From positions 73,966,001-74,030,000 of the forward strand of contig OX597823.1 in NCBI GenBank assembly GCA_951406725.2: 64,000 nt of DNA, written 5' to 3'. The notes under the pieces were generated by a model, which saw only the letters and a program-made list of their open reading frames with translations, was not told the DNA's origin and did no database searches. Below, in pieces: positions 13,343 through 47,957 of the stretch; within the stretch, counting starts at the first letter, position 1; each line of letters opens with the position of its first letter. The translations under genes and the position numbers were made by a program. This DNA is from Octopus vulgaris. Taxonomy: Eukaryota.

Positions 13343-14285
13343 ATGAAATGGAAAATCGCCACAGCCGTTATCTGTTGTTTTGGCGTATTCAAAGGTTTAC
13401 GACCATCTGAATCATACCTTACTTCTTATTTGACCTCTGCAGACATGAAGAATTTGTCAGTTGCTGATGTCAACAGCCAAGTTTATCCAGTATGGACATA
13501 CAGCTACCTGGCTACTTTGTTCCTAGTCCTGCTCATAACCGATTATCTTCGTTACAAAATCGTCATCATTTTTGAAGCAATCGCTTATATTATTACCTGG
13601 TTCCTGTTGCTATGGGGAAAAAGCATCCTTCATATGCAGTTAATGCAAGTAGTTTATGGTTTTGCTACGTCGACAGAGATCGCCTACTATTCTTACATTT
13701 ACGCTGCAGTCAGTGAAGATCATTACCGCAAGGTATCTGGTTTCGTACGTGGCAGTAACCTGAGCGGTCGTTTTTTTGCCGCTATTGTTGGGCAGATACT
13801 TGTAATCTCAGGCGTTAATTATTTCAAGCTGAATATTATATCCACAGTTAACGTCTGCATCGCATTCGTCATTTCTATCTTCCTACCCAAAGTAGAAAAA
13901 TCGTTCTATTTTCATAAACAAACTACAAATCAAAGTACTGAAGACATAGACTTGGATTCTGCAAATTATCAAAATACGATCAACAGTAGTAGCATCACCC
14001 AACTGGACACTGATTCAAGTATTCATAGCACCAAGGATGATAACAGAAATAACGACAATATTGTCAAAGTGTCTTTCAAAGACGGCATTAAAAAAATGGC
14101 CAGAGATTTTATTCGATCTTACTCGCACCATGAACTTCTCATATGGTCATTTTGGTGGGCTATGGATTCCTGTGGTAATCTTCAACTTGGTAATTATATT
14201 CAAAACCTATGGATTGAAATAACGCCCAATCGTACGCATACACAGAATTACAACGGCGCCGTGGATGCTGCATCAATGGCTCTAA
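13343..14285 (+). CDS. SLC19A: SLC19-family thiamine/folate transporter, N-terminal coding exon A (about TM1 to start of TM8)
   Basis: RPSESYL, YPVWTYSY, TDYLRYK, EIAYYSYIY, WSFWWA, NYIQNLW, YNGAVDA motifs; acceptor TTTTACAG at 13264; phase-1 donor A|GTAAGT at 14286. Confidence 0.92.
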
Positions 14286-14376
14286 GTAAGTGTTTATTTT
14301 ATTGTTAATTGCTTTGTTACTACTGCTTCTGTCATCATTTTGATGTTTTATTATCATCATAAAGTCAGTGAATAAA

Positions 14377-14790
14377 AGGCGGCGAGCTGGCAGAAACGTT
14401 AGCACGCCGGGCGAAATGCGTAGCCGTATTTCGTCTGCCGTTACGTTCTGAGTTCAAATTCTGCCGAGGTCGACTTTGCCTTTCATCCTTTCGGGGTCGA
14501 TTAAATAAGTACCAGTTGCGCTCTGGGGGTCGATATAATCGACTTAATCCGTTTGTCTGTCCTTGTTTTTCCTCTCTGTGTTTAGCCCCTTGTGGGCAGT
14601 AAAGAAATAAGAAACGTTAGAACGCCGGGCGAAATGCGTAGCCGAGGTCGACTCTGCCTTTCGTACTTTCGGGGTCGATAAATTAAGTACCAGTTACGCA
14701 CTGGGGTCGATGTAATCGACTTAATCCGTTTGTCTGTCCTTGTTTGCCGCCTCTGTGTTTAACCCCTTGTGGGTAGTGTAGAAATATATA
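14377..14790 (+). mobile_element. SINE family C, dimeric
   Basis: Head AGGCGGCGAGCTGGCAGAAACG plus two body units. Confidence 0.85.
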
Positions 14791-15422
14791 AAGTCTGTGG
14801 ATAACAGAACAGTTAGAATACCGCTCAAAGCATCTTGTATTGTTTAAGTACGTCCTTTTGTGTGGTGTTTTTAAAGCTCATCGATTCGTTTTTACATTTC
14901 ATCATTTTTTTTACTGTCAAGAACTGGAGTCGATGTAATTACCGATGCTGGAGAGCATTATTGTTGCTTAATTAAAGGTAGAATCTGTTTGGAGTTACAT
15001 CTCGCTATGCTAAGATTCAAATTTTCGGTCGTTGTCAGTTTTGCTTTCCAGCCTTTCAGGGTCAATAAAACAAGATACCAGTCGTAACAAAGCATTCGAA
15101 TTTACCCATTCTAAATCATATGGATTTGTATTTATACTAGAAACCGCCATTAAATTACTTTCCTTTACGTTTTACGGTTTCATCTATCTACTATCAATAA
15201 ACTAAAAAGTGAATAGGCCAAGCTGACTCCGCTCATCCCGCAAAGTTTCTGGCCCTTTACCAATCTCAGGAACTATTATAAAGCTGTGACTGATCTAAAG
15301 AAGAGACCATAGGACAAACTGTTTTCTGATATTTATTGAGTTGTCCGGAAAGTTGATATTGGTAAAGGTAGGTTGTATAGTTGATATTGGTAAAGGTAGA
15401 TTGTATAGATGCAGGCATTCTA

Positions 15423-15987
15423 TTAGGTTCTCCGCAAAGTTCGTGCCGATTTATAGTGGCTTACCTTTCGACTTATTTTAGAACATGTTTGAATCCATAA
15501 AATAGGATTTGACTACACTTCCATTTAGAACACAGTTTAAGCTATCTTTTCGTGGAAGAAGATTTATGTTCCTATAACCAGTGTTAATTCTGTAACCCTT
15601 TAAATTGGAAGATAAGAAAGTTCATTTCCGGCATTTGATGCTTTGGAAACCAGACAAAAATTGCTGCAGCTCGGCTGGGATGTGTTACCTTGCCTTCCAT
15701 ATTCACCAGATATGCTCCTTCGGATGTTCACTTATTCAGGTCTCTGCAGAATAGTCTTAATAGTAAAAATTTCAATTCCTTGGATGGCGTAAAAAGATAC
15801 CTTGATGAATTCTTTGCCATGAAACCACCTGAATTCTGGGAAGAGAATATTTTCAAGTTAAAGGAAAGATGGAAACGCATTGTGCAACAAAATGGTTCAT
15901 ATTTGGTTGATTAAAAATGTAATGGCAAGTATTTATTGACCTTTTTCTTTCCTTGAAAAATCGGCATGAACTTTCTGGACAACCCAA
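15423..15987 (+). mobile_element. Internally deleted mariner element
   Basis: TIRs TTAGGTTCTCCGCAAAGTTCGTGCCGATTT / AAATCGGCATGAACTTTCTGGACAACCCAA; residual APSDVHLFRSLQNSL...WKRIVQQNGSY. Confidence 0.85.
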
Positions 15988-16888
15988 AATTTATGTAACT
16001 TTGCCTTCTGAGTTGAGACTCCTCTCAGGTCGTCTTTGACTTTCGTCCCTTTGGGATTTATGAAATAAGTACCAGTTAAATACAAAGGTATATTTAATTG
16101 TTTCCAACGAACCAACAGCGTATGTGAACTTTTGCCAACGTACGAAGTCCTTAGATTGCAGGCAGTTTAGCCCCATATAAACCTTGATCGAGCAGACCTA
16201 TGTTATAAAGCATTCAAACTGCGACCATCATGTCAACTTTTTTGTTAGGGAGCTACATAATCTTGTGTGAACTTTCATTTCTTCTAATCGATTAAAAATA
16301 TGCTTGAAGGTGGAATCGAAACCAGATTGCCCCATTCTCTTCAGGCTTTACACATGACGATGTGAAGAATATTGTGTGTGTATCGAGATAAATCGCTTAT
16401 TTATCTACATCACTCTCTCTCTTTTCTCTCTCTCTCTCATTCTCTCTCTCTCTCTCTCTCTCTCTCTCTCTATATATATATATATATATCTATATATATA
16501 TATATATATATATATATATATATATATATATATATATATATATATATATATATATATATATATATATATATATATATATATATATATATATATATATATA
16601 TATATATATATATATATATATATATATATATATATATATATATATATATATATATATATATATATCACTAATATATATATATATATATATTACAAAATTA
16701 GAGAATGGAGAAACATACTTAAATCAGTAAAACATCAACTATCCGATGATACTCAATCCATACTTTAATACACCATTACATATGAGTAAAGGCAATATAT
16801 AAAATGAAATGAGATATACAGTAATAGTAAAAGTAAAAAGATAAAGAGATATAAGTAAAAAATTTCAAATATAATATGCAAATAAATC

Positions 16889-45748: not shown

Positions 45749-46655
45749 TATTAAGAATGAAAAAGTATGTCATCATGGTTAGATATGCGTGTATGTACAT
45801 ATGTATATGTGTGTGTGTGTATGTTTATGTCTAGTACAAAAGAAAAAATAGTAACATTACTCATGGGATTCAATTGTGTCTGCTGTAAACCATGTAAATG
45901 TGCTAACCTTACATCAAAGCGTCATCACAAAATTTTACATAGGCATATGATCAGAAATGCTTGGGTGGAGAACAGTTAATTATGACACCACTAGTTTTTA
46001 ACTGTCTTTTGGAAGCAGGATGGAAGGTAAGGATGTCATCAGTGGAATTTGAACTCATAATATAAAGGACCACAGCTAAATACTGCAAGGCAGTTTGACA
46101 AATAAAGAACTATAATGATTATTTCCAGTTGGCAAAAGGTCAATATTTGTAAAGAAGAGCTATGATTGATTGACTTGACCCCATTTTTTTTATTATTGGT
46201 AGACCTTCTTATCAATGTCAGAGTGGATGAAAAACAAAATTAACCCAAATTAGGTTTAATACCAATATGCTTAGATGACAAGGTATTTAGTTTGGCTGGC
46301 TCTGCCAACTTGTTTTTCTCGTTATCTCAATAGTTATCAAATTAGACTACAATTAGACTCAATAGTTATCAAATTAGACTACAAACATATAAGACTACAA
46401 ACATAAAGATGTCTCTCCTACAATATAGAAATAGACCCCAGTACCCACCTAGCATTTATTTCTTTTAACCATGCTGGGTAGAACGTTAAAGTCAACCCTA
46501 CATTTTCTGTCATTCTATCAATTTGTTAATAATCATAAGAGAAACATAAATGGTAATAGTAGTAGCAGTAGCAGTGGTGATAGTAGTAGTAGTAGTAGTA
46601 GTAGTAGTAGTAGTCGTAGAAGAAACTGAAGTAGCAGAAGCACTAGTAGTATTAA

Positions 46656-46876
46656 CCCTTTTGTTACTGTATTTATTTTGAGATGCTCTGTGTTTCTTTC
46701 GATTACTTTAACTATAATTGAGAATTTAGTAAAATAACTTAGTTATCATTCATCTAGTGTTAGGAACATGAATTGTGACTGAGGTTTGGTGGAAGATTTT
46801 AATTCAAAACTTATGTAAACAAGACATTTGTACTTCAGAGCCAGAGCTGGTTTCAGCCAGGTTGGTATTAAAAGGG
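46656..46876. mobile_element. piggyBac-type MITE
   Basis: TTAA|CCCTTTTGTTAC ... GTATTAAAAGGG|TTAA. Confidence 0.75.
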
Positions 46877-47424
46877 TTAATGATAATTATGATAATGATT
46901 CCTACTATAGGTACAAGACCTGGAATTTGGGGCAGGGAATTAATAGTATTAATAGTATTCAACTGGTACTTATTTTATCAACCCTGAGAGGTTGAAAGGC
47001 ATAGTTGGCCTCAGTAGAATTTTAGCACAAAACAAAGCTGAAAGAAAGGCCACTAAGCTTTTTGTCCAGCATACTAATAACTCTGCCAGCTTGCTGCCTT
47101 GATAATTATTGTGATAATCCACTCTACAATAGGCACAAGGCCTGAAATTTTGGAGGAGGGTGCTATTAGATTACATTGACTCCAGTGGTCAACTCAAAGG
47201 ATAAAAGGCAAAGTCAGTCTTGTTGAAATTTGAATTTCAATTTCTGTCTCTCAAATTCACTCACAAAGCTTTGGTCCATGGTGTCAGAAGACACTTTCCC
47301 AGGGGCTGTGCAATGGGACTAATCCTGAAACCATGTAATTGTAAAGCAAGTCTTTAACCACACAGCCATGCCTGTGCCTATATATGTGTATATATATATA
47401 TATATATATATATATATATATATA

Positions 47425-47670
47425 TCACCTTGATCACCTTGACCGACCAGTCCGTCGGGCGTCCATTTGACACTGCCTGTCACAACACGCTGTCCACTCC
47501 TCTCCAGATCGTGCCTTTCTCATCCACGTGATCCCAATCGTCCTCCTGAAATCGTAACTCCACTGTCATGGAGGCCTTCCTGATGGCCATTTCCGCTCGT
47601 GCGGCTACCACTCGACAACTGTGCAGGTCCACCGATTATCAGTGAGCCGGGCGACGTGTCCAGCCCATCT
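47425..47670 (-). pseudogene. RTE LINE 3' fragment
   Basis: Minus frame GHVARLTDNRWT..VVEW*P..RKWPSGRPP. Confidence 0.7.
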
Positions 47671-47764
47671 ATATATTTATATATTTCTTATATAAACTAC
47701 TTTTTCTTCTCATACCTCATTCATTCTTATATTATCATTTTTCTTTCTTATGTTTTGAAATCAG

Positions 47765-47957
47765 GTGCTGCATCTTCCTTTGGTGTTGGATTTTTGAAAA
47801 TTGAATGGAACAGTTATGAAAATGTGCTTCTTTTCAGTGTTAATGTCATAATATCATGTCTGATGATTGTGATGGCTCTTGCTACCAAAATATGGCTAGC
47901 TTATATGTGTTATATAATCATACGTATTAGCTACCATACGGTACTCACCATAGCAAC
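47765..47957 (+). CDS. SLC19A: SLC19 downstream exon (193 bp; about TM8-TM10)
   Basis: Acceptor TTTTGAAATCAG|; AASSFGVGFLKIEW...IWLAYMCYIIIRISYHTVLTIAT; donor AC|GTAAGT; in frame with both exon A and exon B. Confidence 0.88.

Follow-up and report, generated by a model that had tools for sequence, protein, structure and literature searches.

Can one solute carrier gene supply two different transporters by exchanging its front end? The question is raised by a stretch of 64,000 nucleotides (nt) from Octopus vulgaris (assembly GCA_951406725.2, contig OX597823.1, positions 73,966,001 to 74,030,000 of the forward strand), hereafter the window, which carries two SLC19-like exons, A and B, followed by exon sequence that either could be joined to. 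We consider it very likely that the locus is a single SLC19A2/3-like gene, in which either of the two divergent front exons is joined to the same three back exons (C1-C3) to give two full-length carriers, with the choice between them likely made by separate promoters. The features are collected in Table 1. Extended coordinates refer to the window plus 40 kb on each side (144 kb in all, with 0 N).

Table 1. Exons and associated features of the SLC19-like gene (TM, transmembrane helix; UTR, untranslated region)
Feature	Position	Strand	Description
Variable coding exon A	13343..14285	+	943 nt, 314 codons + 1 nt, phase 1; TM1 to first half of TM8; short TM6-7 loop
Variable coding exon B	43424..44531	+	1108 nt, 369 codons + 1 nt, phase 1; TM1 to first half of TM8; long TM6-7 loop
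Constant exon C1	47765..47957	+	193 nt; begins mid-TM8; single genomic copy
C1-C2 intron	47958..64000 and on past the window end	+	C2 and C3 lie beyond
Constant exon C2	extended 66354-66495	+	142 nt; locus L015; outside the window
Constant exon C3	extended 70987-71100 (coding part)	+	TM12 and stop codon; locus L015; outside the window
Likely 5' untranslated part of exon A	13265..13342	+	Pyrimidine-rich acceptor, AG ends at 13264
Upstream stretch contiguous with exon B (retained intron, or else a long 5' UTR)	43000..43423	+	RNA-type X3 contig
Left edge of CpG-depleted block	38459..39786	.	Best change point 39245; block runs to ~78.1 kb extended

Exons A and B are two homologous, large 5' coding exons in tandem and of equal phase. 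Each begins at its ATG with MKWKIAT, the two start codons being 30,081 nt apart, and each ends at a GT donor (GTAAGT at 14286, GTGAGT at 44532). A preliminary description of the window had reported them as intact paralogues about 30 kb apart, with the same opening and a phase-1 donor at the same aligned codon, either of which could join 47765-47957 in frame through Ser or Cys. These coordinates hold, and the junction codons are AGT (Ser) after A and TGT (Cys) after B. It had counted one shared downstream exon; there are in fact three, the last two outside the window. The SLC19 profile PF01770 scores 327.6 bits on A, 286 on B and 37.6 on C1, all above its curated cut-off of 27. The comparison of substitution rates between A and B that had been proposed (262 codons) gave a nonsynonymous rate, dN, of 0.40, with the synonymous rate, dS, saturated.

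Assembled contigs from four runs align to A and from four runs to B, three of the runs being common to both. The join of A to C1 can be read in letters in one run of four and is matched by overhang length in two more. The contig of run X1 spans 13340-14287 and continues for 129 nt, the first 30 letters of which match the beginning of C1; the overhang of the A contigs is 28 letters in X3 and X8 and just 4 in X12. The join of B to C1 is read in two runs of four (X3 and X8), where the contigs continue with 27 letters of C1. Both junctions that had been singled out for checking, 14285 to 47765 and 44531 to 47765, are thus present. For A as for B, the contigs of X3 and X8 end 30 nt past the donor (2+28 and 3+27 letters, 2 or 3 letters being common to intron and C1). 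The word length of Logan we take to be 31, and contigs of both kinds ending 30 nt into C1 are the pattern expected of two paths that merge in a 31-mer graph. Bins of unique intron sequence beside the A and B donors had no contig cover. Contigs of this kind, with 33.5 kb or 3.2 kb missing between GT and AG sites, represent spliced RNA. Taken with the single-copy C1 and the RefSeq isoforms described below, the junction contigs show each variable exon joined to one common constant set.

The same contigs bear on the possibility that A and B head two ordinary tandem genes, the second C-terminal set having been lost to an assembly collapse or held identical through gene conversion. When SLC19 proteins longer than 400 residues were searched by tblastn against the 144 kb, just five places, A, B, C1, C2 and C3, were each matched by more than 100 queries. 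The A-B interval gave weak matches, none better than E 0.21, and otherwise only matches owed to one protein's low-complexity tail, in agreement with the earlier finding of no TM8-12 exon for A in the non-repetitive parts of 14286-43423. Across the 2.8-Gb genome, PF01770 exceeded its cut-off at A, B (in two pieces), C1 and C2 alone (5 of 14 matches), and copy counts were one for C1 and two for the N-lobe. We did not find a second C-terminal set or a third variable exon in the 144-kb region or in the genome-wide profile and copy searches, which score the best candidates only, so that a very distant SLC19 gene could escape them; the flanks, where further variable exons had been thought worth seeking, gave none within 40 kb on either side. 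A pair of tandem genes gains some credit from the repeats of the region, 41% of the 144 kb matching another place within it, and from the two Logan lineages discussed below being known from proteins alone. However, the 144 kb contain no N, C1 is single copy, contigs of A and of B seem to converge on the first base of C1, the same shared tail occurs in RefSeq models of two other species, and the A and B tails are 99-100% identical within each of four lineages while differing by up to 43% between lineages. We therefore regard tandem genes as very improbable. The outcomes named beforehand as speaking against a shared back end did not arise: the searches brought up no C-terminal set belonging to A alone, transcripts of A are joined to 47765, and the region is free of N gaps.

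Joined in silico, B and C1-C3 encode 518 residues, identical to protein P0012 (named Octopus vulgaris by NCBI), and A and C1-C3 encode 463 residues, all but 3 the same as in P0002 of O. sinensis. RefSeq lists both forms as isoforms in two species, O. sinensis (XP_029640814, isoform X1, B+C; XP_029640815, isoform X2, A+C) and O. bimaculoides (XP_014770313, isoform X1, B+C; XP_014770760, isoform X2, A+C), and in each the constant residues of the A and B forms are identical (148/148). The design is already implicit in automatic annotation, under differing gene names. Our literature search found no account of a variable/constant-exon design for an SLC19 carrier, although isoform tables of genome papers could mention one; the preliminary description likewise knew of none, though the RefSeq isoforms imply it. 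For annotation the matter is of practical relevance, since some models divide the locus or fuse it with a retrotransposon, and its isoforms bear different gene names. The fused model is P0144, in which a retrotransposon piece, the 3' frame of the long terminal repeat (LTR) element at 21353-27218, is attached to mid exon B. Two B isoforms of O. bimaculoides, P0126 and P0127, end after C2 in alternative tails and would be without TM12.

Some models also end A without C1 (P0008 and P0123), and A lies outside a CpG-depleted block that holds B; both facts would suit a functionless, orphan partial duplicate that is occasionally read through into the exons of B. Yet A is intact in 5/5 A-type sequences, keeps its pocket residues and has fewer private changes than B. 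It is 94-96% identical between Octopus species, as are B and C, and the contigs show it joined to C1. The orphan reading is largely refuted already, and we give it hardly any weight.

The arrangement appears to be old. In each of two further Logan lineages, an A-type and a B-type protein end in a common tail (P0003/P0146 and P0131/P0145). Their constant residues are identical at 154/154 and 147/148 positions and their N-lobes at just 61-65%, while the tails of both lineages are 57-61% identical to the Octopus tail. The rule of Ser after A and Cys after B holds in 4/4 lineages. In a tree of the variable region (29 rows), 13/13 A and B rows fall in one clade (100/100), apart from bivalves and chiton, and the B exons group across lineages (98/99); in the constant-region tree (20 rows) the grouping is by species. 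An Octopus A+B clade, as independent duplications would give, is rejected by the approximately unbiased (AU) test (p-AU 0.0026). The trees leave out four sequences without the boundary motif, and the test a further four rows (two long-branch, two window copies). We infer a single duplication of a large first coding exon in the ancestral gene, later than the divergence from bivalves and chiton but earlier than that between Octopus and both Logan lineages, with both copies retained. From their placement in the tree, the Logan lineages are likely other cephalopods (squid or cuttlefish).

The exon border itself is older still. C1 corresponds to exon 4 of human SLC19A3 in position, phase and length, and G327 aligns with the junction residue; the human exon is bounded by c.980 and c.1172 (193 nt) and its first residue is G327 (PMC8281341). 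The genome-derived mollusc frames P0009, P0010 and P0031 run out just past the same point. The intron is thus ancestral, and it was likely one pre-existing large exon that was duplicated. Among 242 proteins longer than 380 residues, 22 pairs combined an exact 60-residue tail with less than 70% N-terminal identity, all within the A/B set, which is a weak negative outside this group given the 50% clustering and the restriction to top hits. A looser rule (40-mer, <80%) added 6 pairs, all ordinary vertebrate orthologues. A metagenome scan with P0145 for DNA of relatives confirmed 0 of 77 candidates. Two apparent multi-exon models, P0182 and P0175, were rejected as whole-gene repeats or repeat insertions.

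What would the exchange do to the protein? Structure models were made on P0002 and P0012, the one within three residues of the window's A+C and the other identical to its B+C, with a mean predicted local distance difference test score of 81.0 for A+C and 74.9 for B+C. Both forms are predicted to fold as 12-TM carriers of the major facilitator superfamily (MFS). The best structural matches of both models are human SLC19A2 and SLC19A3 (target-normalised template modelling score 0.88-0.94), and the top 22 Foldseek rows are all SLC19A1-3. The junction falls within TM8 of the predicted models (helix 359-377 of B+C, 304-324 of A+C), so an exon swap would change the whole N-bundle, the TM6-7 loop (108-165 residues in B vs 42-58 in A), TM7 and half of TM8. 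By human numbering, the variable exon holds all 14 of the thiamine contacts named in PMC11447181 and also the pyridoxine contacts named in PMC11686366; the positions of human K380, M384 and T422 lie in constant exons.

Both forms keep E32, W59, T93, W94, N297 and Q300, and E320 is Asp. Like several other invertebrates, both carry Gln in place of E110 and Arg in place of Y151, and E110Q is reported to weaken thiamine affinity of the human protein from 12.7 to 85 uM (PMC11447181). The substrate can therefore not be read from these residues. E120 and M384 of the human protein are described as separating thiamine from folate carriers (PMC9794768). The E120 site is Glu in A, Gln in Octopus B and Glu in the B exons of the Logan lineages; the M384 site is His. 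The folate pair of SLC19A1 (Arg133, Gln377) is absent from Octopus, the Arg133 site being occupied by Glu or Gln and the Gln377 site by His. These residues give no support to the database name 'folate transporter 1-like' for B+C. Between 5 A-type and 5 B-type sequences, 13 positions are fixed differently, six of them in TM7-TM8 (human 292, 294, 301, 303, 317 and 324); every B exon has Lys at human 292, His at 294, Phe at 113 and Ser at 301. At otherwise invariant sites Octopus B has 20 changes (including E120Q) and Octopus A 3, and their branches in the variable-region tree are 1.12 and 0.43. Our best guess is that both forms carry a B-vitamin, thiamine or a relative, and may differ in affinity, gating, regulation or tissue; of the two, Octopus B appears more likely than A to have shifted.

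A bolder reading, compatible with the gene structure proposed above, is that one cephalopod gene does the jobs of three vertebrate SLC19 genes, with promoter choice swapping the pocket: A would carry thiamine-type cations (thiamine or pyridoxine) and B, whose TM7 has gained Lys and His and whose E120 is neutralised in Octopus, an anionic or phosphorylated vitamin (folate or thiamine phosphates), both using one set of C-terminal helices. The locus is the sole SLC19 locus found in the genome-wide profile and N-lobe searches, and the B-specific Lys292, His294, Phe113 and Ser301, the Gln at the E120 site of Octopus B, its 20 private changes and its long branch are all in keeping with it. On the other hand, 13/14 named thiamine contacts are equal in A and B, B is without the Arg of SLC19A1 at the E120 site (Glu being kept in the Logan B exons), the second determinant, human M384, sits in a shared exon, and alanine changes in the aromatic clamp, Y113 included, are reported to have left binding by human SLC19A3 unimpaired (PMC11447181). 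We hold this two-vitamin reading to be doubtful. If it is right, nature would have provided, long ago, a pair of chimeras for SLC19 substrate choice.

The acceptor at 13264, 78 nt before the ATG of A, is the best-scoring one upstream of A, and the X3 contig begins at 13278, 13 nt inside it; the other A contigs are cut at a TA repeat, and 13213-13269 is uncovered in 4/4 runs. Given the strong acceptor and the start of the X3 contig, A is probably the first coding exon behind a non-coding exon, unlike the literal first exon of UGT1A. For B, an X3 contig of 2072 nt runs unbroken over 43000-44534 with another 509 nt upstream of 43000, and the true 5' end of B lies farther upstream.

CpG content separates the two exons. 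Methylated CpG decays over time. In non-repeat sequence, C followed by G stands at 14-17% over A and the A-B intron and at 4-6% from 39.2 kb (38.5-39.8) to 78.1 kb. The depleted block begins about 4 kb before B and takes in B, the constant exons C1-C3 and the 3' end; it leaves out A (exon A vs exon B, Fisher p 0.0009). Octopus methylation is reported to mark the bodies of genes expressed across tissues and mostly to spare promoters and transposons, and some octopus genes are reported as methylated in their 3' part only (PMC9476566). Because the block begins before B and excludes A, separate promoters are favoured, the promoter of B probably lying at or just before the block edge. On this pattern, B would be transcribed from an internal promoter near 37-39 kb as the broadly expressed, constitutive form, and A from farther upstream as a more restricted form, with B removed inside the 33.5-kb intron of the A transcript. 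The block extends about 7 kb past the stop codon (extended 71100-78100; loci L015 and L016) and may there mark a long 3' UTR or read-through. Another depleted stretch, at extended -39999 to -36000 (locus L022; observed/expected 0.09-0.36), is perhaps the body of a neighbouring gene. A blastn comparison of the A and B flanks found no shared non-repeat motif.

The preliminary description had left the choice between alternative promoters and mutually exclusive exons undecided, and the CpG pattern tilts it, indirectly, towards promoters. If instead one upstream promoter and one shared non-coding exon served both forms, A and B would be mutually exclusive internal exons picked by splicing. The strong acceptor of A would fit this, as would candidate acceptors for B at 42150, 42275 and 42839 and a 568-bp, 90%-identical inverted repeat pair around B that could loop B out. 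But a single upstream transcript would not simply explain a CpG block that starts ~4 kb before B without A and its intron, the X3 contig of B shows no splice across 43000-43423, the A unitigs of X1, X3 and X8 cross the donor unbroken, so that just one successor was assembled, and the repeat that makes up the inverted pair occurs a third time, 48 kb upstream of A. Choice by splicing thus seems unlikely to us.

Several observations weigh against a gene with two swapped front ends and separate promoters. The runs are assembled contigs, neither raw nor long reads, whose RNA status is a guess ('RNA?'), and no run containing A is recorded as RNA. The 28-letter overhangs of A in X3 and X8 are known by length alone, that of X12 is very short, and the B contigs of X1 and X21 end before the donor and do not reach the junction. 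No 5' non-coding exon or transcription start was seen in the contigs for A or B. The gene models P0008 and P0123 end A in short, unrelated tails that disagree with each other; that of P0123 (O. bimaculoides) was unmatched behind A, its best match being on the minus strand at 11934-11987. For the Logan lineages, the sharing of exons is deduced from identical protein tails. In the variable-region tree a branch sets the A exons apart on one side, but they are no clade in the best tree of a simpler model, under which such a clade is not rejected (p-AU 0.28). Lastly, of the 14 thiamine contacts just Y113 (Tyr in A, Phe in B) sets the two forms apart, which leaves a substrate switch unproven.

The introns hold repeats of several kinds. 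An LTR retrotransposon occupies 21353-27218 of the A-B intron; it is Ty3/Gypsy-like by its gag and pol frames, with pol interrupted after 24894, and its two direct repeats of 585 bp are 100% identical, indicating recent insertion. The inverted pair flanking exon B lies at 15421-15987 and 45183-45750, with the third copy at extended -34359. It is the only pair of >=100 nt across the A-B and B-C1 introns at E 1e-20, and it could help to loop out B or be there by chance. A second inverted pair, 16687-18157, has arms of ~585 bp that are 99% identical and ~300 bp apart, and is either a small recent element or a local assembly feature. The C1-C2 intron carries ~2 kb of degenerate tandem repeats (59155-61346). 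Within exon B, the contigs differ from the genome by A>G at 43786, 44326, 44425 and 44428, all silent third codon positions; 44425 and 44428 are changed in 4/4 runs and 43786 in 3/3 covering runs. These sites are either alleles or A-to-I editing.

By sequence and fold the octopus gene is closest to SLC19A2 and SLC19A3, with which it shares PF01770 and the MFS fold, but humans have three separate SLC19 genes, whereas octopus has one gene with two variable exons. In design it resembles UGT1A, GCNT2, UGT2A and the clustered protocadherins, which also have tandem homologous large 5' exons in the same frame and common downstream exons, and in genes of the UGT1A/GCNT2 type the variable exon is described as holding the ligand-recognising part (PMC1885805). 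The likeness to UGT1A that the preliminary description drew stands for the common constant exons; it does not extend to a larger array, there being just two variable exons, or to the position of A, likely behind a non-coding exon, and its separate promoters are putative. The octopus product is moreover a 12-TM carrier with the exon joint inside a helix. For a polytopic membrane protein the closest design is that of Drosophila Gr39a (also Gr28b, Gr23a, Or46a and Or69a); in Gr39a, large alternative exons with most TM helices and their own start codons are described as spliced to three small shared exons (PMC2204066). Those genes encode 7-TM chemoreceptors whose exons have been gained and lost among flies and whose large exons are without acceptors, whereas the octopus gene encodes an MFS carrier and shows two copies in all four lineages examined. 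The exons exchanged in SLC7A2, SLC25A3 and SLC12A1 are short and internal; the octopus gene swaps 68-71% of the protein, start codon included. These three are given as solute carriers diversified by homologous exon substitution through tandem mutually exclusive exons (PMC8373072). The octopus locus is a real, old and intact case that extends the known variable/constant-exon design. The design now reaches a 12-TM solute carrier, in which two variable parts, about half identical, must pack on the same four and a half helices. What sets SLC19 substrate choice and gating is now being charted position by position in the human carriers, and with its constant back end the A/B pair offers a ready comparison for it.

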